A stretch of 63,876 bases of DNA, counting the filler, from Lophium mytilinum (Eukaryota): the NCBI GenBank assembly GCA_010093605.1. It is 17 parts of 12 records of this genome, joined end to end, with 100 filler letters (N's around TTAATTAATTAA, not from the genome) between each part and the next. Parts side by side here need not be neighbours in the genome. Positions count along the whole stretch, not along the records: positions 27,904 to 34,919 come from MU004205.1; 16 more parts are not named here. One strand, 5' to 3'. A program made the position numbers and the translations under genes. Positions 27,501 through 61,065 of this stretch are shown here, piece by piece. The notes beneath the pieces were generated by a model. That model saw only the letters and a list, made by a program, of their open reading frames with translations, was not told where the DNA came from and ran no database searches. Position 1 is the first letter of the stretch; each line of letters starts with the position of its first letter.

Positions 27501-29339
27501 TATAGGTATAATAATCTATTAGTAAATACTCTACATGCAGTAAGTATAATCTAATTAGCGTTAGAAGTCTAGTATACTTACTATATATCTTAACTCTTTC
27601 TATTTAGATAATATAGTAGCTAATATTATAATATAGCAAGTAACTATATAATAGTTCCTTAGAGTAGATCCCTTAGCTAAGTTACTAGCTTTCTTCTAGC
27701 TTAGAACCTTCCCTCCTAATAAGAGCCTATTACAGCTAATACAGCCTTCTATTTAATAAGCCAACTAGAGCTATTATAGAGAGAGGATAATCCTAATAAC
27801 TTTNNNNNNNNNNNNNNNNNNNNNNNNNNNNNNNNNNNNNNNNNNNNTTAATTAATTAANNNNNNNNNNNNNNNNNNNNNNNNNNNNNNNNNNNNNNNNN
27901 NNNACCCCTAGAATTCTATAACCTTATATAGCCTTAGATTATTAGACTCCCTTAAGAAGTATAGTATAGCTTAGCTAAAGTTAGAGTACTTAGATTAGAT
28001 AATAACGCCCCTATAACTTAGCCCTTAAGGCGTTAATTAACTGCAAGCCGGCCTTAGGAATTAATTCTAAGCTATATTTACTAAAGCTTAGATCTAGATA
28101 TCTCTTACTAGGGAGGATATAGAGATATAGTATCTATAGTATAGCATTATAGTATAGTATACACTAGCTATTTAACGCGAAAATAGGACTAAAGTATAAA
28201 AAGATTAGCGATTGGCACTACTATAGATAGGTAAGGCAGCTATACTTATTATTAAGGCATACTATACTAATATATATAAGCTTCTAAGTAGATAGTATAT
28301 AGAAGAAGACGGAAATACTAAAATATAATAGGAGAGTAAAGAACTACGCAACTAATTTCTTAAGAGTATTCTAAATAGATCTATAGTTATGCTTTATTTT
28401 AATATGCTTATAAAGCTATATAGAAAGTTAGAACTTATAGTAAGCTATACCTATATGCGGAATATAGCTAGAAATAGTAATATAAATTATCTAAGGTACT
28501 TAACTAGACGCTAAATTAATTAAGTCTAGCTGCTGTTTAATATTACGGATCTAGCTATAGAAACTTAAAAATAGAATAACAGTCCCTTCTATATAAAATT
28601 ATAAAGATTAAATATAATAATTAAAAATAAAGCGTTACTAAAAACAGTAGAATAATTCCTTAATAATCTATAAGCGAGAGCCGCCTTATTACTCTAGGTT
28701 CTTCTAAAATATAATAACAATAAAATTTTAACCACGCGTTAAGCTAAATAAAATAACTTTAAAGATATATAAGATAATATTAGGGGAAGAGATATAATTA
28801 TAAATATATAGTAGATCTATATATAACTACTAAATAGCTACTACTATAAGGTAGCCTAACTAAGCTAATATATTAAAGAACGGGCTTAAGGGGGGGTAGT
28901 TAATCTTAGCATAGACGTAGTTGTAAAGGAAGTATAGAATATAACCTAGGAAAGCCTAGGAAAGTTAAAGATAATAATAATAGAGGATAATATTATAGGC
29001 TCTAGGGGTTAAGTTAATCTAAAATATATCTAGCTTAGGTTTAAGCACTATATACTAAATAGCCTAAGGGCTTATTTAGGCAGGATTTTAATAATTAAAG
29101 AATTCTAGAATTATTTAGTAATATAGAAGGAGCAAGAGGGGGATATAAGTAGTTAGTTATTAGATAAAAAGTATAAGTATAAAGAGAGTTTAGGTAACTA
29201 TAGCTTAGAAATAGAGGACTTAGAGGACTTAGGGTAAGAGGCCTAGAAGAATAAGGCTTAAGTAGAAGAGTTCTAAGAAGTATATAGATTTAAGCGTTAA
29301 TAGATAGACTAGTAGGGGCGGCGTTATAAAGAAGAATTA

Positions 29340-32300
29340 TTAATAAGAAAAATAGTAAAGTAATTAGTATAAGATATAAAGGGCGTTAGTAGAAAGGCTT
29401 CTAGCTAGGCTCTTATATAGTACGTAAATACTTATTTAGTAGGTATATAGCGGTAATATATATAAGAAGAGAGGTAATAATAGGCGTGCTTAATATAAGT
29501 AGTAAAGGGCCCTAGTAGAAAGGCTTTCTAATAAGACCCTTATACTATAGGTAAATAGTTATATAATAACGCGCAATATTCTATTAACCTATCTTAGCGT
29601 AGTGCTATATTACTAGAACTAGGTAATATATAGTATAGTATTATAGATTAACCGCAAACGTTTATATATTAGTAAAATTAAGTAAAACGCTAATATATTT
29701 ATACCTATAATATTTTAACCTTATATAATATATAGCTATTATATTAACCTTAAGAGTTAACTTAAGTAGTTTACTATTAAAGGCTTAGCGTCTTAGCGGC
29801 CGGCGGCTATCGGCCCGGCCGCCTATAAACTTATCCGCTGCCTAGCAGCTTTAACTTCTTTATTTCTATACTAACCTCTCCTTCTATACTACTACACCCC
29901 TATTACTTCTACTTATCTAGCTACCTGCGGAACGGTTGCGCGCTAGTTTCTTACTTGCTAGATAATAGTTAGTAGCTTCCTAGCTATGTTGGAGCCGTAA
30001 TTAGCTTATTTTAGGCGTCTTTTTAGCTAGCGGTTAAGCCTTTTAGTAAGTTTACTATCTAGCAGGTAAAATTAAGTTACATTATAGCTAATTCTACTAA
30101 TAGATTTATTCTATTATAATTTCTCTAAGAGTAGAGTAAGGTAAGCGTATTATAAGAATTATTATAGGAAGGCTTTCTACTAGAGCCCTTTACTAGTCTT
30201 AGTAGATTAGTCTACCTTAATTTTAAAGATATAGCAGCAGGAAATATTAAGAAAATAATAATACTAAAAATACCCGGTATAGTATAAAGAGTTTTAGTAG
30301 AAAGCCTTTCTACTAGGGCTCTTTACCTGCCTCCTTTCTTCTATTATTTAAGATAAGCTAATACATTAATAGGCTAGCTATAAATATCTTAAGTAATAGG
30401 GACCCTAGCGAAGCAGTAGTAAAGGTTACATCCCTGCGCATATTACCTGCAACTAACCTAGTAGATAGCTATAAGAAATAATCTACTTCTTCTAAAGTGC
30501 TAGAAGATTTAAATCCTACCTCTCTACTAGTTACTAAATTAAGAGTTAATGCCTATATTAATTTAAAGCGCAATTAGCCGGCCACTATAATAGATCTAGA
30601 GACGCTTACATTAGTAAATAGTAAAGTAGTTTATCTAGATAGCAATAACTATAGTAATAACTCTAATATCCCTAAGAACTCTAATAAAGAGTAAGAAAAG
30701 CTTTAAGCGCTAGTTACTAGTAGTAGGAAAGATAAAGAGTTAAAGAAGTTATAGGCCTTAGTAAATACGCTGTATACTAGTAGAATAAAGTTAGCTAAGC
30801 TTTATAGTTAAATAAAAGCAGAACTTAAAGTAATTCTAGCTAAGCCTAATTTCTAAGTAATTTAGAATAAGTATAAGAATAGATATTTAGACCTAAAGCG
30901 CGCCATATATAGTTAGAATTAAGGGGCTAGTTTTACTACTATTCTAAACGCTTTTAAGACTAGTAAGTTGCATAATCTATAGTAATATACTACTTCTTAG
31001 CCTAAGACGGATAACTATAAACCTGTAGATTAGGTAGCTTAATTTATTAGTTAATGCTTTAATTACTACTAGAAGCGGTTTAGTGGGTTTTTATATAACC
31101 GCGCTAATATTACTAATAATAAAGCGCTTAGAATCTTCTTTAAATTAAAGAAAAATATAGAATTTAAGAGTGGCCTATCTTAAGCTAGTAGAACCGCCTA
31201 TACTAAGAACTAAATTAAGATATAGAACATTCTTTAAAAAATAAAGCTTAGTCTAGCACTAGCACCTAAGACCCTAGCTAAAACTATTACTTATAGTAGT
31301 AAGAATATTAATAGAAAGCCTTCCTGTTAAGGCCCTTCTAGGCCTCCCTATTAGTAGTCGCCCTCTTATTTTACTAAGGAGGAACTTGCGGCTATTAATA
31401 TAGAGGTTAATATAGATAACCCTATCTAGGGGTTATCTAAAGAGAAAATTGCTATAAACCTAGTTAATAAGAAGAAAGGCAATGTTAATATTACTAGCGC
31501 TAAGTATATTACCGGCACTATAAAATAGGAGCTTAGGTTAGTAATTACGCATGCTAAGCGCACTAGAGCGATAATTAACTAGAACTTATTAAAGTTTTAA
31601 TACAACGCATATTAAGTAATTAGATAGATAGTAGAAGATTTTATATATACTATTAAATAGTATCTAAACATGCGCGCTATAGATCTAAATAAGGATAAGT
31701 ATGCTAATTTAGACAGTATTAAATATGCCTAAGATATAGAGGCTAATATAAGGGCTACCGCTATTAATGTAAAGAATATTATCCCCTTTACTACACTAAC
31801 TATAGTAGATCTTATAACGCAGAGTATACTCCGCCTTCTAATAACTAATAAAGCCTATTAGCTAGATAACCTTAAAGAAGTAATAAAGGCCCTACGCATT
31901 TATAACTATTAGGAACCCCGCCTTATTATAATAAATAGTAATATTTACTTAAGGTAGTAGTAGATTACTGGGGCTTACTATATATACTATATTATATAGA
32001 AAGGCTTTCTTAGTAGGGCTTTAATTATAGATAAGGTTAGTATTAGAAAGATATTTTTAATAGCTACTCTTATTAGATATATAAGTAATTTCTCTTTAAA
32101 GAGTGTTAATAGAAAGCCTTTCTACTACCCCCCTAATAGTTTCTCTTAGTATCTACTAATTTAATTATAGCTTATTACTAAGCGCTAGTATAAAGTTGCG
32201 GATAAGAAAGACCCTAGGCTAGTAAAGCCCTTTCTTTTTCTTATACCTCCTGTTTTAGTATACTAAATAGCAAATAAACTTATAAAGTTTAGTTCTAAAC

Positions 32301-34919
32301 TTAAGCTCTATATCTATTTATTAAAGGGCTAAGTTACTTTCTATAGCGCTACATTTCTATATAATACCTTAACTAGGGACTATCCCTTATTTAATACTAA
32401 AAATAAGGCGAATACTAAGAGTATTATAATCGCCAGCTATTAGGTAATAGCCGGTTAGTATAGTCCCTAGCCTGCATTAAAGTAGTATAGTAATAATAAT
32501 CTTACTAAGCTAAAGAACTAGGTTAAATATTATCTAAGCTCTATCTAGCCTAGTCTCTTAAGTAGCTGTTTTAACGTCTAATTTATAGACGAGTGCTAGC
32601 TTATTAAAAGTAACTAAGTAAACCTCTATCTAACCGCGTTATAGCTTTACTTAGACTTTACTATACTCTATAGTAGGACCCCGCTATATATAGGTATTAC
32701 TAATATACCTACTTATATATCTTTTATAGAACTAAGAGATAAGTATCTATAATTCTGCACGTACCGCTTAAAACCCGGTAAAGCTAAGTTTATTCCAGGT
32801 ACTAATAATCCGTTTAAGCTTCCTAATAACTATTTAGGTATAATTTTCCAGTATATACGCAAGGCTTTTAAAAATTTTATTCTACCTTTATTTAACCCGT
32901 AAGTTATTATATAAAGGGCCCTAGTAGAAAGGCTTCTAGCTAGAGCCCTTATCTCTTCTCTTATTTACTTTAATTTTCTAATATTTCTCTAGGATTATAT
33001 AGGGGCTTTATTTACACTTAATTTTTAGTAAGTATATAATTGCTTGCTTATACCCTTCTATATGCCTAAATAATTCTACTAATCCTGCCACCTAAATTAG
33101 AGGATTACTTCCGCGGTTAGTTATGCAAGTAATTAAGCTATAGCCTATAAAACTAGGCTATATTATCTATACTAATAAATTACTAAGCTACCTTAAGTTA
33201 TTAATAGTTTCTACTAAGAACCGCGTAGGCTAGCGCACCTATATATTTAACACATGCTCTATGCGTGCTCTTAACCTTATAAGTACTACGCTATTTTTAG
33301 TCTACTTTAAGCGCGCTATAATAGTATATCTATAAGAGAAGGTCTTAGATTTAGAGGGTAATAAGATTAAGGACGGCCTAAAAATTATCCCTCTTAAGAA
33401 TAATAGCGGTTACTAGTTAAAGGAAATAGACATTTTACAAGGTATAATAAAGTAAATTACCCGGAATAAGGACGTCTAAACTAACTATAATTAGAAAGAC
33501 TTTAAAGTAAAGTCTATACCCTTTTATTATATTATTGCCCTTTTTATCTATAATGCCTCTAAAGTGGCTGCACTACTATACTATTTAGCTAATAACGTTA
33601 TTAAGCGTATAGAGAAGGTTATTATCTAGACTAACTACCTAGATAAGTAAATAATTCTTACTAAGATTATTAACTATTATAAAATAGATACTTATATACT
33701 AGCCTCTAATCTCTCTACTACTAACCGGGATAACCTTATCTTATTATTTAACGACCCTAACTCTAAAGTAAAGATCCTTATTACTAGTTACTAGGCTAAT
33801 AGAGCTAGGCTTAATCTGCAGTCTACTTATTATAATATATATCTTTTTAACCCTGCAGGCTCTATTTAGATTAAGAAGTAGGTAATAGCGCGTTTATATA
33901 GGATTAGCTAGAAGTTTACTATTATAGTAACCGCGTTCTTTATCTAGGACATATTTAATGCCTTTACTCTCTTACACTAGGTATAGATGGCGCTTCCCGG
34001 TCTTACTACTGCGTTAAATACTAACTAGATTAAGGTGGAGGGGACCTCTAAGGAAAAGCTAACCCTAAATAGCTAGTATACGTAGGTAACCTATAATAAT
34101 AAGAGTATTACACCCCGCCTTATTATAGGCGAAATAGATATTTTAAATATGCTAGTAGAATTATATATTAAGCGCTTTAACTCCCTATAAGATATTCTTG
34201 TATTTCTAATAACCCTTATGCAAGGTAATATAACTTTTTAGTCTAGTAGGTTTAGTAATAAGTTTTAAGAAGAATAAGCGTATAAATTTACTAAATTAAA
34301 ATTAGAAGAAGAGTAGGAGAAGGGTGTAAGTAGAGCGCCTAAGAAACCGCGTGTTAATAAGCTAGGTTTAAGGCTTAAGCGTTATTCTATAAGTAGTAAG
34401 TTCGCCCTTATAGGTTCTAGCGGGAAGGCTTTCTACTAGGGCTCTACTTACCTCTTTATACTTTGCTAATCCGTGTTTTATAGTAAAAGCTACGCTAAAG
34501 CTAAAGCTAAAGACGCTAGAGTAATAAAACGGTAAAGCTTTAAAGTAGAAGCGCAAAGCTAGTACTATACTAGCGGCTACTATTAAGAAGCGCAAGTCTA
34601 ACTCTAAGTCTACTATTATAGTTAAAGACTTAGATTCTACTAAATTTAATATGCCTACCCCTATAAAGAGCGCTACTAGAAATACTTATAGCCCTTTTAT
34701 CTATTAATATAGGCTGGAGCGTAACTCTTTATATTAAGTGCCCGCTGTTTTTAGTAATATAGACGGCGATAACCCTTTTAGTAGGCTAAATAGTAATAAC
34801 TCTAAAGGTAAAGAGTATAAGAATAATACTTTATTTCTTATAAAGTATATAGGTAAGAATTTATCCTAGGGTCTTTTTAAAAAGCCTTTCTACTAGGGCC
34901 CTTTAGTATTACCTATTAT
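29340..34919 (+). pseudogene. Multi-intron SNF2-family helicase pseudogene (core ~31950-33950)
   Basis: Motif I ALIIDKVSIRKI (RIP-reverted approx. GALIADEVGIGKT); Ia KPFLFLIPPVLVY*; II FIDEC*LIK; III SRTP; IV EKVII*TNY; V KILITSY*ANRARLNLQ; VI *VIARLYRIS*. GTAAG...CTAAT...TAG introns. Gene limits uncertain. Confidence 0.85.
29379..34903. repeat. Dispersed 37-bp palindromic motif AAGGGCCCTAGTAGAAAG-S-CTTTCTACTAGGGCCCTT (9 copies here, plus one at 53770-53806)
   Basis: Copies at 29379, 29505, 30154, 30287, 31301, 32099, 32914, 34410 and 34867. Confidence 0.88.
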
Positions 34920-36189
34920 NNNNNNNNNNNNNNNNNNNNNNNNNNNNNNNNNNNNNNNNNNNNTTAATTAATTAANNNNNNNNNNNNNNNNNNNNNNNNN
35001 NNNNNNNNNNNNNNNNNNNTAAAAGTAGCTAAAGAACTTAACCTACTTTTAATAGCGCGGTATAGACTATTAAAGAAAGGCTTAAGTACTCTTATAATCT
35101 ATAAAAAGATAGTTCTCTACCCTTACTACTTACTAGTTCTTATAAGTTATCTACTCTCTATCTACCTTATTCTTATTAAGTATAGTTATTACTAATATAT
35201 ATACTACTAATTCTACCGCATATAAGAGGCTTAAGCGGCCGAATTAGTAATATTATAAAACTTCCTACCTAACTAGCGCCTTCTAGCTATTATCTAATTT
35301 TACGCTAGCTAAGAGAAATATAGAATTTAACCTAGGCTACTTAATACGCATCTAATATTACTATCTTATAGCTATTCTATAACTAGTACTTACCCTAGTA
35401 GCTATCTTCTTAATAATACTAGCACTCTTAGTAGATATCTATTAACTCTATTCTACTAGACTAGTAATATATTACTACCTAGCGCTTACCTTATAGAAGG
35501 GAGTAATACGCTTAGACTTAGTATCTTCTTCTATATTACCTAGATAGTACTTACTTAGAGTTAAAAGTTCTTTACTATAGCTAGTAACTATAGTAGAAAG
35601 TTAGATACTAGAAATTAGTAAGAGGTAATACTTACTTTTAATATATACTATACTATTAGAACTAGAGAAACTAGATATAACTACTAGTATGCGCTTAAAA
35701 CTACGCCTACTATAAAGATTTATACTAGCTATAAAAAATATAGAAATAATAGAAATAATTATATATAGGCTTTAGAGTTATAGTTTAAAAAAGTAAGCTA
35801 TAGTCTTTAATATATAGATACGTTAAGGTTCTAGGCTAATAGAATAGCCTACCCCCTATTAGAATGCGTTGCGTGCTATTAAAGAATAATAAGTGCTATA
35901 TACTAGCCTATAATTTAATATAATCTATAATAATTACTTATAATCTATAAGTTTCTATATAGAGCTAACTAAATTTAACTAGAAATAGAGTATATACCTT
36001 TTACTAAATATAAATACTACTATAAGTTATTCTAAATACTTAGCGCTCTAAATAAATATATACTATACTATAAAAAGCTCCTTAAAATACTATAGCGGGT
36101 CCCGCTTACTAATACTAAAACTACTAGATCTATAATCTAGTCTTATATACTCTATATTATTTAGATAATAGATAGAATATTATTTAGAA

Positions 36190-53012: not shown

Positions 53013-55624
53013 NNNNNNNNNNNNNNNNNNNNNNNNNNNNNNNNNNNNNNNNNNNNTTAATTAATTAANNNNNNNNNNNNNNNNNNNNNNNNNNNNNNNN
53101 NNNNNNNNNNNNTAGTTTTTTATTTACTACTAAAAGCTAATATTAATATAGATAATAACTAGACTAAGAGTAATAAGTAGAATAAGAAGAATATTAAAAC
53201 CCCTAACATTAATATAGAGAATATCCCGTCTAAGACTAATAAGTAAAATAGGGGGTATCTTAATAATTACCTAGATTTTACTACTATACTATCTAAAGTT
53301 GCCTTTAAGTGTAACAGTAACTATAGTAGTAACTTAGATAACCCGCTAGAATTTATAGAAGGAGCCTTATAGCTAACCTTAAAGACTATATCCTCTAGTA
53401 ATACTAATAAGAGTTAGAAGCGCTAAGGCGTAAAAAAGAAGCCTACTATAAAGAAGAATAAAGTAGCTAAGAAAGACTCTATATCTAAATTCCTTATATA
53501 TTATCTATATAAGTATATAATAGAGAAAGAGATTACTAAATAGCGCCCTTAGTATAAAAGAAAGGCTACTAAGAAGAAAGCTACTATATAGAAGTCTTTA
53601 AACTCTACTAGACTAAAAATAGACCTACGCAGGCGGAAGAATAATTCTAATATTAGCTAACTGCCCGCGGCATTAGGTGTAGATACTAACTCTAATAGTA
53701 AAGAAAATAGTAGTAAATTAGAGGGGACTAGTATAGCGCTAGAGAAGTCTAATAGTAAGGTATAACTAGTAGGGTTTTTATAGAAAGGCTTTCTATAGAG
53801 GCCCTTACTCTACTTTTTAGATTTAGTTTAGCATCTCTTAATATCTTTTTCTTTTTCTTTCTAATAGTTCTAATTAGGACTACTTTTCTTACTATTAGTT
53901 TACACCTACTTACTTAGTACTACTAACTTTTTACTATTCTAATTTCTTACTTGTGTTCTATTCTCTACTCTTTAATAGTTAGTACTACTCTATAGTAGTA
54001 GTATACTTTATACCCTTAAAATCTTCTAGTTTATATTTAGCCTCTAGATAGCGGCTTACTTAACTATAGAATATAGCGTAATATTTACTACTATAACTAT
54101 ACCTTATATATTTTATATATAATATAATATTTATTTTATTTATCTATATTATAGGGGGCGGTTTTATCTACTATAGTTTATATAGTTAGGGAGGGCAATT
54201 ATATTCTAATACTACTCTATTATATCTATACTATTAGTATATACTTTCTATCTTTTTTATAGTAAAGAATCTACTATTATATACTCTATAATTTAATTCT
54301 TCTTACTAATATTAGTTATATAGCTAGGCTAAGTCCTCTCTATAGACTCTATCTATTAATACGCTATATATAACTTTATTCTACCTATAATTTTCTAAAG
54401 CGTATATTATTATATAATGCCTAAACTAACTAGAAGGAGAGTTATTTATATATATTATTATTAAGTCTTTAGCGTGCTAGGCAGCGGAAGGCAATTTAGA
54501 TATTATAGTTATACTTTCTAGTTTATTAGCGATGTATTTAAACCTACTTATTATTAGTAAGAATAGTAATTCTTAAGGGGTTATAGTCTTACTATTTATT
54601 ACTTTTAATATAACTTTCCTTCTTCTTATAGTTATAAATAGTTTCTATATTATAAATAGTACTGCTCTTTTATTCTAGTATTTTTCTTTACTTCTATTCT
54701 TATAGCTATCTTAATAAGCGCTTTAGCTATATAAGCTTTCTTCTTGCAACTAAATCTAGAGTAGCATTTATAACCTTACGCCTAGATAGAGTATTAGGTA
54801 TAGTAAGAGGAGAAGCTAACCGCTCTATTAGAATATATATATTAGGTAGATGTAGATATATCTACCCCTACTAAATATTATTCTTAGTGTTTAGAGTTAC
54901 TATACTACTGCGTATTAACCTTAGTATGCTGGGCTATATTTTATATACTTTAGCCTAGTTTAAGGTTATAGCTATCTCTATATTAGATTAGGCCGCTTTT
55001 TATTTTATAAATATCTACTAGAATACTCTAGAAAGAATATATATAGTATACTAATTAAGACTTATATATAGTATTATGCGTAGGCTGCTGCTATACTATA
55101 AGGGGTAGGTAGTAGTTAGAAAAAGGTTTAATACACTAGTTTCTATTAATCTTAGTATATTATGTGCTAACCTCTTATATTATATCTATACTTATAATTA
55201 ATCTTTAGAGGTTAACTCTATATACTATATATAAATAGCAGCTCTAAGAGTTTTATTTTATTACTATACTATATATATATTTTACCTTAGGCAGGACTAG
55301 TAGGTCTCTATAATATATAGTTTATATAACTATACCCTGCATTACTTTAGCGCCCGCCTAATTTACTCTTTCTTTTTTTTCTTACTTTTTTAGCTTATTT
55401 CTCTCTATACTATAGCTATAGGTAAACTAATAGCTAGAACTAGTATAGAAGAGACTCTTAATTATATTTAAAGTACTTTAGAGAGATAGTTTAATAGTAT
55501 ATAAAGTTTTAAAGCNNNNNNNNNNNNNNNNNNNNNNNNNNNNNNNNNNNNNNNNNNNNTTAATTAATTAANNNNNNNNNNNNNNNNNNNNNNNNNNNNN
55601 NNNNNNNNNNNNNNNTAATTTTAA

Positions 55625-55810
55625 TATTTTAAGGCTTAAGTATTAGTATAGGGGAAATTTCCTCTATACTAATACTTAAGCCTTAAAATAAGATTCTTAC
55701 TACTAATACTTAAGCTATAAAATATTAAAATTAGATTCTTACTACTAATACTTAAGCTGTAAAATATTAAGATATATTTTTATATTTTACCTATACTAAT
55801 ACTTAAGCCC
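55625..55810. repeat. 66-bp near-perfect palindrome followed by direct repeats of TACTAATACTTAAGC
   Basis: 55625-55657 and 55658-55690 are reverse complements with one mismatch. The core motif recurs at ~55701, ~55743 and ~55794. Confidence 0.85.
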
Positions 55811-58800
55811 TATATTATAATAGCTCTAGTTTAAAATAGAAATACTAAAATAGAAAGGCTATATAGCCTATATATTAAATAGAAAGACTATATAATTATA
55901 TACTCTATATCTACTCTATATACTACTATTTTTTCTCTAGAATAAAGCCTTCTCTATATATATTTATATATATTTCTACTAGATCTACTAAATTCTTTAC
56001 TACTTATATAGTTCTATAGGGGTCTTTAAATCTATAAATCTTATCTATAAACTTTATAGCTATTCTATCTAGTATTTCTCTACTAGTAGCTATTTTATAT
56101 ACCTTAAAGAACCTATTCTCTATCTCTTAGAGAAACTTTAAGGTCTAGGCCTACTATAAGTAGATACTAGTAGCCTTAACCTATATTACTTACGCTATTT
56201 AGTTAATTATATTATCTATTTTCTACTAGAAGAAAGCCTTTATTAGTTTAGTATTATCTATATCTAGCGCTATAGAGCTTAAGCTTCTAGATTAAATAAT
56301 AGGCGCGTAAGAAAGAGGCGCTATAGAAAGCTATAAAGTAGAAGTAGATAGAGAAGAAGTATATCTAGCTATAGTATAGGGGTTTAGCGGCGTAGAAGCC
56401 CCCTAGTATAGTAGCGGCTAAGAATAAAATAGAAAAGAAGCCTATTATAGCTACTATAGAGGCTAGTTAAAGTCTATCTTAAATATTAATATAGCTATTT
56501 TTATCTATATTATCTTTATCTATATATCTATAAAGCTAGCTATAGTATTCTAGGTATTCTATACTATCTACTATACTAACTATACCTATATAGTTCTTAT
56601 AGGCCTCTAGTATTACTTATTAATTAGCCTATTTTCTATTAGCTCTTAGAGTAGCTTTATAAGAGGAGTATAAATTATAGTATTATTACTAAGTATAGTA
56701 TTTATCTATATCTTATAGTACTTTAAAAGAAAAATATAGTACTACTTACCTTTATTAATAAAGTAACTATTATTTTTATTTAAGTAATTACTACTTATAT
56801 ATATCTAGTTCTTTATAATCTTAAGCTTAAGATCTCCCCTATTAGTAAAGTAACCTAGTTAGATATACTACTATTCTAATAGCTTACTAGTATAGTACCT
56901 TCTACCTAATATAGGCGCGGGTAATAAGCTATTAAACTACTTAGATTTCTTTCTTTTAGCCGGCGGCGCCTAGGCGTTATATAAGACCTTATACTTAAAA
57001 ATAACTATAATTATTAAGTATAGATAGTCTCTCTATATTATATCTATTAGCGCGTATACCTAGGTAAACTCTATTATTAAGAAGTTCTCTAGATTATAAT
57101 AGCGCGTTCCTTCTCTTCTAGTAGATATTTTAATACTAGCTATACGCTTAATAACTCTATAAATAGTATTATAGTTACCCTCTTAAATAGCTCTCTCTAC
57201 TATCTTCTTAAGCTTTTTCTTAATAACTCTACTATTAAGCTAAATATGCGTGCTATTTAGCTATATAGTTTAGCTAATAGTTTTACTATTTATAAATAAC
57301 TTAAATAATATAAGTATAATAAAGTTATTAATAAGCTACTTTATAGGTATAAATATTACCTTAATATTAGATATAGTTAGGTCTATCTTAGTAAATAACT
57401 ACCTTCTTTTCTTTATATACACCTTTACCTTAATCTTATTTATCTAGTTTATAGAGAGGCGCCTACTAGTTTTATTAAGATACTCTACTATAAACTATTC
57501 TATAAAGCGCTTAAGCTTCTTATCTATCTTTTTACCTAGCTTAGATAATATTAGTAGATTATTCTTCTTTTTTTCTTTTTTTTTCTTATTTACTTTCTCT
57601 ATATCTACTATAATCTTATTAGTATAATACTTATAGTATCTATCTTATAGCTTCTAGCTAGATAGTATCTTACTATTACTATTTCTTAATAGATTAGAGT
57701 TTATTCTATTCTCTATATTCTAATACTTATACTTATTTAAAGTTTTAATATATATATATCTAGCCTTAAGTAAACTAGAGTACTAGTTATATAAAGTACT
57801 ACTAATACTCTAGCTCTAGGGTAGATTAATAGTAATATTAAAGCGCCNNNNNNNNNNNNNNNNNNNNNNNNNNNNNNNNNNNNNNNNNNNNTTAATTAAT
57901 TAANNNNNNNNNNNNNNNNNNNNNNNNNNNNNNNNNNNNNNNNNNNNTAGACTTAATAGACTAATCTATATATAGAGAGATTACTATTAAGCCCTTCTTC
58001 TAACTCTACTCTAAGGGCGCTAACTAATTCTTTAATCTTCTATATAGTATATATAAAATCTTAGTTATAAGAAATAAATTAAATAAACTATAGAAAGTAG
58101 AACTTAAGAAGATACTTACTACTTAAATAACTATAATATAGTCTACTAATAGGTCTAAGTCTATAGTAAAATTTAAAGAGAAATATAGTAATCTTTAAAA
58201 GCGCTAGAGATATACTAAATACTAACTTAATTCTATAGTAAATATTCTAATCTTAAAAGGCTAAATAGAGGTAATAGACGCCTACACCCTTACTATTATT
58301 CTAATAACTATGCCTAATACTACCTATATAGTAAAGCTTACTAAGGCGCTATAAGACTAAAAGCTACTAAAGTAAGTTATAATTAAGTACTAATTTAGAA
58401 TCTCTACTTAAATACGCCCTAGCCTACCTACTAATATACTAGGTGTATAATAGTATACTTACTTTTATTATTTTAATCTAGATATATATAAACTATAAAA
58501 GATAGCCTCTATAAATAAGCCTAAGTACTACTATAACCTTACTATTAAGGGTACTCTTAAGGTTCTTAAGATTCTAGAAGAATACCTACCGCCCTTATTT
58601 AGAGGCTGGATAATTAGGTATAATACTAACGCAACCGCTAGTAAAAAGCTAGCGGAGGTCCCTATCTTTCTCACTATTATTCTAACCTAACTAGCTACCC
58701 CTGCTAAGCTAGTAGAACCCTATAAGAGGTTAATATAAAATACTATTTACTATATAAAAGTCTAAGATAAGTATAAGTTTTATATTAGTCTACCTTAGAA

Positions 58801-61065
58801 TCTATATTTTAAATAGTATATACCTATTATCTTGCATATAATCTATAGAGAATTAGCTAATAGAAATCTAGCCTTATAAATATAGCTTATATTTATAGTT
58901 CTAGTATTTAGATTACTATATACTAATAAGCTATACTAGATTATATTCTATAGCTAAGTAGACTCTCTACTTAATACTATCTATACTAATAAGAAGTTTA
59001 AGGCTATAATAATAGATAGTTTTACCTAAATATATCTAGTTATATCTATACTAGATACTCTAGAGAAGTTAGCGTTTATAAAAGTATAAGCCGGAGAATT
59101 TTATAGCCTTAAGTAGCCTCTAAACCTACTATAAACTATACCCCTACTTTTAAAGTTATAGAAGGCTAAACTTTTTATCTAAACTAATCTACTATTTATT
59201 AGAATTATAGAAAACCTACTAGTGCCCTAGCGTAACTACTATATCTATTCTTCTATTAATACTCTAAGTAAGTATATAGACCTAGATTATATTCTCTATT
59301 TTAAGGTTACTACTCCTAATATAGAAAAGTAAAGTCTAGATAATAAGTACTAGTATACTACTTAGATATTATATAAAAATATTACCTAGTATACTATACT
59401 AGTTAACTTATTATAGAAATAGGTTAACGCCTAGACTTATAAGGAGTTTTATAAAGTATTATATAATATAGCTACTAAAATACTTATAGTATTACCTATA
59501 ATACTAAATATAGTAAATATAATAAATAATATAGTAGAGGGCTTTATAGATATAACTAAGCCCCTTTATATATATTTAGATTAGTACTAGGTTCTAATAA
59601 TAGAGAATTATATACTGCTAGAGAAACTATATACTATTAATATTTTCTACTAAGGCTGCTTTAACTAGTTTCTATCTCTATTTAAGTTAGTATAGGTTAT
59701 AGTTAAGTAAGTTTATAACTTTAAAATAACTAGTAGACTAGAAGGGCATAGTAAATATAATATTAAGAATATTCTTAGGTACTATACTAAGGTACTAGAT
59801 AAGTTTAAGGCTAGCTGGGCTAAGGCTAGTAATAGTATAGAGGGGGATAAATAGAATACTACTAAAGTCTACTATATTAATAGTCTAATCTTCTATATAG
59901 ACTACTATATAGCTAGAGGTTTTACTATATTTATCTAAGAACTAATTACTAATAGTACTATTAACTATTATNNNNNNNNNNNNNNNNNNNNNNNNNNNNN
60001 NNNNNNNNNNNNNNNTTAATTAATTAANNNNNNNNNNNNNNNNNNNNNNNNNNNNNNNNNNNNNNNNNNNNAGGCCTTAATATCTACCTTAAGAGAAGTA
60101 ATTATCTTCTTATAAGTATAGAGTTTATTTTTATATTCTTCTAGTTTAGTTTTAATATTAAGTAGGCGTTTAAGTTTCTTATATGCAGCTTTTAAGTTAT
60201 TATTCTTCTTATTATATTCTTTCTTAAGGACTCTAATCTTATTCTAGAGGTTATGCTATACTTTCTAGTTATTCTTATATATCTACTAAAGAATCTTAGT
60301 TATAGCTTAATAGCTTCTAAGAATATAGAAGAAATAAATAGGGTCTACTTAGACTTGCATAAGAAAGTCTTAAAAGTCTATAATCTTAATTAACCTATTA
60401 AACTATTTATTGCCGGGCAGGAGTAAATAATTTAGAAATTTAGTAATATTATTAATAGCGTTAAGAAACGTACCCTAGTTGCAACCCCAGCTAGAAGTAT
60501 AGTACTTAGTAATAGAAGTATAGATTATTAGGTCTAGGGTATATATAGAATTATTAATATTATTATTTTTAGTAATATCTTTATCTTAGGTAAGCTAGTT
60601 CTCTTAGGTAAGCTAATTCTCTTTCTTCTAAGTAGCCTACTAAGTATTATCTACGCGTATTATTTAGGTAGACTATTAGGTATTTTCTTTAGTTATCTTT
60701 TAAAGCGGCGCGCTCTTTAGAGTCTTATAAGAAGACTTAGAGGGCGCGCAGAACTATAAGTAAGATAGTAGAAAGTAGAAGGCTAGTTATAAGCCGCTGC
60801 GCCTAGAATATCTAGGTTCTATTCTAGCGTCTAGTAAAGGTAGTAGATCGCTTATTATAAAGAATATAGTAGTAGCACTTAGTAAGATAGAGTAGTATAG
60901 CTATATACTCTTTAGTATTATATATATAGTTATATAGGTATACTTATTAAGCTATTAGATAGCTTAAGCTATTAGATAGCTTAGTAAATAAGAATTAAGG
61001 TTTAAGAGTTAAAGTAGTAATAGTAAAAAAGAATTAGTGCTAGTTAGAGTATTAATATAATCTAA

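Follow-up and report, generated by a model that had tools for sequence, protein, structure and literature searches.

A recurrent 37-bp palindrome in intron-shaped gaps of a RIP-mutated SNF2-like helicase repeat from Lophium mytilinum

The introner-like elements (ILEs) of Dothideomycetes were reportedly described by van der Burgt et al. in 2012. The multiplication of introns in ascomycetes is an unsettled matter: ILEs and the sister introns of Hypoxylon carry hairpins and leave no target duplications, and the mechanism has not been demonstrated. In the present work we investigated in silico a stretch of 63,876 nucleotides from Lophium mytilinum (GenBank assembly GCA_010093605.1, in the following "the window"), in which a palindrome of 37 bp recurs in intron-shaped gaps of an SNF2-like helicase locus. 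The copied unit here appears reduced to the hairpin alone, with sharp ends, once per intron and always next to a donor.

ILEs have roughly double the length of other introns and form stable structures, the duplication of introns within the same gene is a recognised minor class, and repeats inside regular introns are on record for Rhytidhysteron rufulum, for Fusarium graminearum and for Sclerotinia sclerotiorum (Collemare et al. 2013, PMC3609843). For the sister introns of Hypoxylaceae the accessible part of Fekete et al. (2021, PMC8469720) reports strong self-complementarity and seamless positions, and the hairpin is proposed to drive their spread. Ascomycetes figure as an outlier without DNA-transposon signatures in the accessible part of Gozashti et al. 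(2022, PMC9860276). With regard to a host locus, X3X3R8 of Stagonospora nodorum is presented in the available text of Hane & Oliver (2010, PMC3017866) as a multi-copy repeat affected by repeat-induced point mutation (RIP) and containing Rad5/SNF2-like helicase genes; the word "intron" is absent from its main text. In our search of the literature on palindromes or miniature inverted-repeat transposable elements (MITEs) within introns of ascomycetes, no system came closer than those compared here, and a term search of PMC4457414 and PMC5647799 gave no mention of hairpins or palindromes.

The palindrome and the edges of its homology

The window comprises approximately 59 kb of sequence other than N in 23 short contigs, joined by spacers in which TTAATTAATTAA is flanked by 44 N on either side, and in places by plain runs of N; the order of the contigs (see e.g. 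the spacer at 34920-35019) need not reflect their order in the genome. Extreme RIP indices are found in all 23 contigs, with TpA/ApT between 1.54 and 2.12 and (CpA+TpG)/(ApC+GpT) between 0.02 and 0.32, and the window is therefore a collection of RIP-degraded fungal repeats. The G+C content of the contigs ranges from 0.16 to 0.32. The contig harbouring the helicase locus (27904-34919, plus strand, approximately 7 kb) is marked as a RIP-mutated repeat by indices of 1.87 and 0.24 and by differences between copies that are almost all transitions. From its indices, the linkers at both ends and the Logan contigs described below it can be classified as a RIP-degraded copy of a high-copy repeat family with an SNF2-like helicase pseudogene. 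Our analysis is that of the DNA sequence of this one mutated copy.

A first-pass annotation had placed nine palindromes in about nine putative introns of one SNF2 helicase locus, each shortly downstream of a donor-like site (two of them consistent with RIP), with a centre of G in some copies and C in others and with an otherwise differing intron. These observations are confirmed by the searches, gap shapes, reading frames and alignments given in the following; the interpretation attached to them is partly supported.

The repeat search returned a single family with nine copies of 38 nt (starts at 29380, 29506, 30155, 30288, 31302, 32100, 32915, 34411 and 34868). A RIP-tolerant 37-nt pattern yielded six matches with at most three mismatches compared to 0.00 expected from 100 shuffles; chance recurrence of the palindrome is excluded. 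The unmutated consensus matches the copy at 29505 only (three mismatches), because RIP altered the others. With an nhmmer profile built from the copies ten loci were found at E ≤ 7.1e-10, namely the nine annotated ones and a new one at 53758-53813 (palindrome 53770-53806). The next-best match is a look-alike in coding sequence (31996-32023, E 0.0043), and all later matches have E ≥ 0.15. From 31997 to 32023, within an exon and just before a DKVSIRK stretch, it resembles the centre and right arm of the palindrome, matching one family member at 78%. It is probably a chance likeness helped by RIP, which made TAG TAG from probable TGG TGG codons.

The unit measures 37-39 bp, with arms of 18-19 bp around a single G or C. 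Designating copies and gaps by the same letters, the centre is G in six of ten copies, H (29379-29415), I (29505-29541), A (30154-30190), E (32914-32950), F (34410-34446) and J (53770-53806), and C in the remaining four, B (30287-30323), C (31301-31337), D (32099-32135) and G (34867-34903). In total 76 differences from the consensus were counted, 43 of RIP type, 11 reverse transitions and 22 transversions or register shifts; copy B departs from the consensus by RIP-type transitions only. The palindrome itself is free of CpA and TpG, the dinucleotides preferred by RIP, and this absence helps it to stand out still.

Copy J lies on another contig (53113-55515), 10 nt after a GTATAA donor-like site, and an unrelated-looking reading frame adjoins it; tblastn gave no match of this contig outside the contig itself. 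The proposal that the palindrome is confined to the helicase element family is thereby weakened. A 23-nt core had no matches in metagenome contigs, prokaryote genomes or viral contigs, and a RIP-tolerant 27-nt pattern found nine loci in metagenomes, all of them unrelated AT-rich hairpins without GGGCCC arms. A literature search with 11-12-nt strings of the palindrome led to unrelated papers only.

To take RIP into account we compared the ten copies, anchored on their centre, in a purine/pyrimidine alphabet, which is immune to RIP changes. Mean pairwise agreement is 0.80-1.00 from −15 to +19 and 0.69 in the bin from −20 to −16. Further out it amounts to 0.46-0.58 in most bins, and to 0.69-0.71 in two pyrimidine-rich downstream bins. 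Alignments of the flanks only, with a transition-neutral score, reached the 95th percentile of the background in 8 of 186 cases compared to 9 expected. Homology between the copies thus stops sharply at about ±19 nt from the centre. When the twenty half-sites are aligned, each arm gains no more than a T and one A (TA(A)AGGGCCC...).

Some copies resemble each other more closely. H and E have a derived variant of the right arm in common, together with 4-5 nt of flank, and B and the reverse complement of I have 8 nt in common on one side, while even the most similar pairs lose all likeness 5-8 nt from the core. This indicates that copies were made from copies, and that the copied unit is approximately 39-49 nt long and not an intron.

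Whichever boundary was assumed, target-site duplications of 2-9 nt were absent, in exact letters as well as in purine/pyrimidine letters, the counts being at chance level. Among the ten copies there is also no consistent flip of the flanks with the centre base. The idea that both orientations occur was based on the centre base alone, and it is weakened since one ancestral G/C change followed by copying gives the same picture. A reverse-complement donor was noticed on the far side of the palindrome: GTAA occurs there in six of ten copies compared to a background of 14%, and GGTAA in three of ten (F, B and G) compared to 2.5%, an excess that was spotted post hoc and is partly due to GTA abutting several arms. 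In gap F the fold extends the stem, and the GTAAGT donor pairs with ACTTAC just after the palindrome. Folding z-scores of the RIP-damaged gaps range from +0.29 to −2.24, and B and J keep stems of 18-19 pairs. Rfam gave no family at the palindromes, the only match being mir-146 at E 0.4 elsewhere on the contig.

A GC-richer palindrome before RIP (with CTAGCGGGAAG-type arms, hinted at by copies F, A and C) was considered and dropped, since it would require three identical changes in six copies, in contexts unfavoured by RIP. In purine/pyrimidine letters the window contains 21 palindromes with arms of at least 17, compared to about 16 expected by our own estimate, and only the 37-nt sequence recurs. 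Two long palindromes were recorded separately. One of approximately 60-66 bp is near-perfect (55625-55690; arms of 30 nt with one mismatch, or 33 in purine/pyrimidine letters) and is separated by about 10 nt from the beginning of contig 55616-57847; either a genuine foldback or an artefact of assembly at the contig end could account for it. The other, of unrelated sequence, is situated at 60941-60990 around AAGCTATTAGATAGCTT, with arms of 25 nt in purine/pyrimidine letters.

The helicase gene and its intron-shaped gaps

The host gene is SNF2-like, RIP-mutated and multi-copy. A phmmer search with the 467-residue translation of the exon for the helicase C-terminal domain (32993-34395, plus strand), which contains many stops made by RIP, retrieved 111 proteins, the best being P0001 at E 4.5e-36. 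Nine relatives were scanned against Pfam, and SNF2-rel_dom and Helicase_C were each found in six of them. In the exon translations of the locus, with X at stops, both the SNF2-related N-terminal domain and Helicase_C are recognisable, the latter at E 0.0065 and SNF2-rel_dom at E 0.098 in the preceding exon (32171-32898, plus strand), although both stay below the family cut-offs (12.2 vs 24.9 bits for SNF2-rel_dom and 17.2 vs 23.5 bits for Helicase_C). This preceding exon, part of the N-terminal domain, is also matched in tblastn by P0004, P0026, P0031 and P0037. We take the DKVSIRK stretch to be a RIP-altered helicase motif I (GLGKT). For P0001, 54% of the aligned codons are derivable by C-to-T/G-to-A changes alone, compared to 17% after shuffling, which makes it a relative and not the same gene. 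No Pfam family and no word-based homologue was found for the 569-residue N-terminal exon; a search from P0001 for longer related proteins gave none, and a search from P0009 returned only itself. All 74 tblastn matches fall on contig 27904-34919, so that the window holds no further SNF2 copies.

Logan contigs with at least 80% likeness to the 7-kb locus numbered 1761 and 1559 in two runs of one sample, approximately 3,300 in total. They span the whole locus (30 of 30 bins) and differ from it mostly by A>G and T>C, almost all differences being transitions. They show one indel only and no joints; in none of them is an intron or palindrome missing, or the sequence between palindromes rearranged, which indicates that the palindromes predate the amplification of the family. 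A further run, presumed to be of RNA, gave no contig on the locus, a result that carries no information on expression. The helicase repeat is probably present in tens of copies, a rough upper estimate from the number and lengths of the Logan pieces. At 32214 one Logan contig continues with a much GC-richer version of the following sequence, so that the source genome must also contain family members less affected by RIP.

A donor-like site is located 2-18 nt upstream of the palindrome in all ten copies. Eight of these sites start with GT (GTAAGT, GTAAGA, GTAAGC, GTATAA, GTATAG) and two read ATAAGT (29495 and 32081), as RIP of TG to TA would give; GTAA lies at most 23 nt upstream in nine of ten copies, compared to 14% of random 20-nt windows. 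The nine complete gaps have a length of 80-121 nt, and most contain a CTAAT-like motif 15-25 nt before the AG end. CTAAT is the expected RIP product of the branch motif CTAAC. The palindrome always occupies the 5' part, with 2-18 nt before and 35-71 nt after it in the complete gaps. Subtracting its 37 nt leaves 43-66 nt (81 nt in J), and 43-66 nt is an ordinary size of fungal introns. We suppose from these features that the gaps would be spliced as introns. While one must keep in mind that they were called from sequence alone, and that the palindromes were taken into account when the bounds of A, B, H, I and J were set, E and F find additional support in the reading frames.

All gaps are read on the plus strand. 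Putative intron E (32899-32992, 94 nt; GTAAGT donor, TCTAAT branch-like motif, CTAG end) is the best supported one. Residues 93-199 of the homologue P0009 align as far as 32899, and the alignment resumes at 33003 with residues 203-525 in another frame, leaving three residues unaligned, and the stop-poor frame shifts as a 94-nt intron predicts. In the same way the frame shift at putative intron F (34396-34483, 88 nt; GTAAGT donor, GCTAAT branch-like motif, ATAG end) corresponds to its length. Putative intron D (32081-32170, 90 nt, in frame; ATAAGT donor, ACTAAT branch-like motif) separates the DKVSIRK stretch from the next helicase block. Of putative intron G only the start is present (34853-34919, GTAAGA donor); it is cut by the contig end, 16 nt beyond its palindrome. 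In gap C (31299-31378, 80 nt, with alternative 3' ends at 31354 or 31357) the GT at 31299 and the first bases of the palindrome together make the donor GTAAGA. The 80 nt agree with the frame change on condition that the frame upstream is "mod 0", and this is ambiguous.

Upstream of 31379 the gene model is uncertain. Gaps A, B, H and I lie upstream of any coding sequence supported by homologues and are recognised by their shape: H (29367-29450, 84 nt), a putative gap upstream of the recognisable coding region; I (29495-29597, 103 nt), likewise putative, with an ATAAGT donor, a TTAAC branch-like motif and a TAG end; A (30141-30234, 94 nt); and B (30277-30372, 96 nt), with a GCTAAT branch-like motif and a fold that keeps a 19-pair stem. 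Outside the locus, gap J (53760-53877, 118 nt) has a GTATAA donor, a TCTAAT branch-like motif and a TTAG end.

The frame also changes near 30900-31080, where there is no palindrome. A candidate intron at 30963-31083 (plus strand, 121 nt; GTAAGT donor, TTTAG end) would reconcile the stop-poor frames on both sides, and the nhmmer palindrome profile has no match within it. This candidate would break the rule of a palindrome in "every intron", which may have to read "nearly every intron".

Further features were observed in passing. The donor of gap A (30136-30145) is an exact tandem of GTAAG GTAAG, and several gaps have a second donor-like motif 5-8 nt upstream; by a rough count such tandem motifs upstream of the palindromes are about twofold over background, which is not significant. 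At 29786-29830 the AT-rich DNA that precedes the helicase reading frame contains a short GC-rich island, GCGGCCGGCGGCTATCGGCCCGGCCGCC, which is partly self-complementary and free of CpA. The contig at 7850-16681 looks like a RIP-mutated LTR retrotransposon, with a reverse-transcriptase-like YLDNILVY motif on the minus strand and similar text near both ends on the plus strand.

Potential origins of the palindromic unit

As a tentative explanation, to which we assign a probability of roughly 0.4, a discrete palindromic module was copied at the DNA level and without target duplication into ordinary short introns of the SNF2-like gene, before this gene was amplified and mutated by RIP. A small hairpin unit, and not whole introns, would have been copied from intron to intron. 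This explanation is ranked first because the unit has sharp edges, because the gaps are of ordinary size after subtraction of 37 nt, and because of the two centre states and the P0009 alignment, which is continuous apart from the interruption and frame change at intron E. The two centre states (six G, four C, with the same arms) are what one might expect of a symmetric unit able to insert in both orientations.

According to this model a module of 37-39 bp, consisting of two arms of 18-19 bp and one G or C, would be inserted as a unit into the 5' part of short spliceosomal introns presumed to be older than the module itself. Copying might proceed via hairpin-dependent repair or a template switch, e.g. 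hairpin capture, rather than by a transposase. The module could fold on itself, leave donor, branch site and acceptor undisturbed, and exit the message together with its host intron, so that copies in introns would be harmless and copies elsewhere would be lost. The copying would have preceded the spread of the gene as a many-copy repeat and its destruction by RIP.

Several points weigh against this model. There is one copy per intron in at most nine gaps of one gene and none is doubled, which random hits would not be expected to produce; by our own arithmetic p is approximately 0.001 for nine hits in nine different introns. All ten copies lie in the 5' part of the gap, for which tolerance by the spliceosome alone is insufficient, and only one of ten is found in the other approximately 52 kb of non-N sequence in the window. 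To our knowledge no insertion mechanism free of target duplication has been described for such a unit in fungal nuclei. The lack of CpA and TpG could mean that the conservation of the palindrome compared to its flanks is partly differential RIP, although the purine/pyrimidine comparison argues otherwise. The single copy per intron, the nearness to the donor and the scarcity elsewhere keep two rival explanations alive, an introner-like origin and a selected site, and they also favour the bolder idea of a unit that targets the region immediately downstream of 5' splice sites.

In an introner-like origin one hairpin-bearing intron would have been copied within the gene by reverse splicing or by capture of a hairpin RNA, and only the palindrome would still be recognisable, kept by structural selection or through gene conversion among the copies as the remainder drifted. 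The presence of one palindrome per gap at the same place relative to the donor is in agreement with such an origin, and so are the gap lengths of 80-121 nt, which would fit long and stably structured ILEs (PMC3609843). The sister introns of Hypoxylon, in the accessible part of PMC8469720, likewise pair a palindrome with the lack of flanking duplications. The variants common to H and E and to B and I, as copies made from copies, and the reverse complement of the donor after the palindrome in F, B and G point in the same direction. Against this, the likeness is gone within 5-8 nt of the core, the RIP-blind alphabet reveals no homology over whole introns, and the spacing between donor and palindrome ranges between 2 and 18 nt. 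A differing centre base is also not predicted by RNA-mediated copying in one orientation, unless two sub-lineages spread. The claim that the palindrome marks an intron-generating element fares no better, since only the core of 37-39 nt is common to otherwise unrelated bodies and the P0009 alignment continues across E with three residues unaligned. We regard an introner-like origin as unlikely, yet worth keeping in view. Copying of whole introns, be it as ILEs, as same-gene duplicates or as Hypoxylon sister introns, was set aside for the missing likeness outside the core.

The palindrome might instead be a selected cis-acting site, i.e. the site of a dimeric DNA-binding protein or a recombinase, or an RNA hairpin involved in splicing control or small RNAs. 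It is the sequence itself, beyond its pairing, that recurs at ten sites, whereas the adjacent intron DNA varies freely. Two inverted 18-bp arms within 37 bp are in the size range of lox- and FRT-type sites, and the stem starts 2-18 nt from the donor, with the folds of F and E including the donor itself. However, the approximately 3,300 Logan contigs contain no joint or rearranged form between the sites, which speaks against the recombination sites suggested by the first-pass annotation. No recombinase or DNA-binding gene was seen in a Pfam scan covering only four exon translations, and no Rfam family matched. Most hairpins are no more stable than their shuffles (z from +0.29 to −2.24), a weak point since RIP came later. 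Selection for such a site is in our view improbable.

An even lower probability is given to a classical MITE, in which two terminal inverted repeats would be mobilised by a transposase and dispersed over the genome, the bias to introns resulting from few other tolerant sites in the window. In its favour, the unit forms a perfect and sharply bounded inverted repeat, both centre states occur, and TA is common at its edges. These features are outweighed by the absence of a target-site duplication of 2-9 nt, exact or in purine/pyrimidine letters, and by the finding that none of the ten copies lies outside an intron-shaped gap in 59 kb of mostly non-coding relic DNA; on both grounds the MITE was rejected. 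Moreover, 37-39 bp is far shorter than any fungal MITE known to us.

A more far-reaching possibility, for which we see little prospect, is a new intron-resident mobile hairpin that homes to positions just 3' of 5' splice sites without target duplication, one copy per intron then blocking further entry, or alternatively an array of recombinase sites in the introns of a mobile helicase element. A homing unit, if it exists, could show how hairpin-bearing introner-like introns spread in ascomycetes.

Comparison with described systems

The significance of the copied module depends on its occurrence elsewhere. Should the same arrangement be seen in intact copies or in further genes of this fungus, what is copied (the hairpin) would become separable from what is spliced (the intron), and a small testable substrate for hairpin-dependent insertion would be at hand. 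If the palindrome is a common dispersed repeat of the genome, it would represent an ordinary repeat tolerated in introns.

ILEs are fungal introns that share sequence, exceed ordinary introns in length and contain a stable stem (PMC3609843), a description to which the putative introns of the present locus may conform. Likeness extends along the entire intron in ILEs and in same-gene duplicates, whereas only a core of 37-39 nt is common here: near-identity along the introns is not seen, agreement being approximately 0.5 beyond ±19 nt, and with regard to same-gene duplication the exon flanks are unrelated as well. Canonical donor, branch and acceptor motifs can be read in the gaps. The nine complete gaps measure 80-121 nt, and the folding z-scores of +0.29 to −2.24 are those of the RIP-mutated state. 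An ILE is expected in tens to hundreds of copies in unrelated genes; here copy J sits beside a different reading frame on another contig.

The sister introns and stwintrons of Hypoxylaceae, as far as described in the accessible part of PMC8469720, resemble the gaps in their size of approximately 90 nt, in possessing a palindrome and in lacking short flanking duplications; tandem duplications of 2-9 nt are absent here too. In Hypoxylaceae, however, inverted repeats of 45-55 nt span the whole intron, join donor and acceptor, and overlap at the 10-nt palindrome TTTCTAGAAA. No such whole-intron inverted repeats around TTTCTAGAAA occur in the present gaps, where a palindrome of other sequence, located in the 5' part, takes up 37 of the 80-121 nt and the remainders are unrelated.

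Transposon-type Introners of algae and other organisms are, in the accessible part of PMC9860276, short, intron-associated and equipped with inverted ends, as is the present unit. They constitute the whole intron, and many have target duplications; the present unit is part of an intron and has none. The same holds with respect to MITEs: a target-site duplication of fixed length is missing, and terminal inverted repeats are present insofar as the entire unit is an inverted repeat.

For the host locus X3X3R8 represents a precedent, known to us by its description in the available part of PMC3017866, and we do not claim identity with the helicase repeat. For the palindrome itself, and going by a one-sentence description in PMC3609843 that does not speak of one repeat per intron of one gene, the intron repeats of the three species named above are similar to our observation in that a repeated unit resides within otherwise ordinary, unrelated introns.

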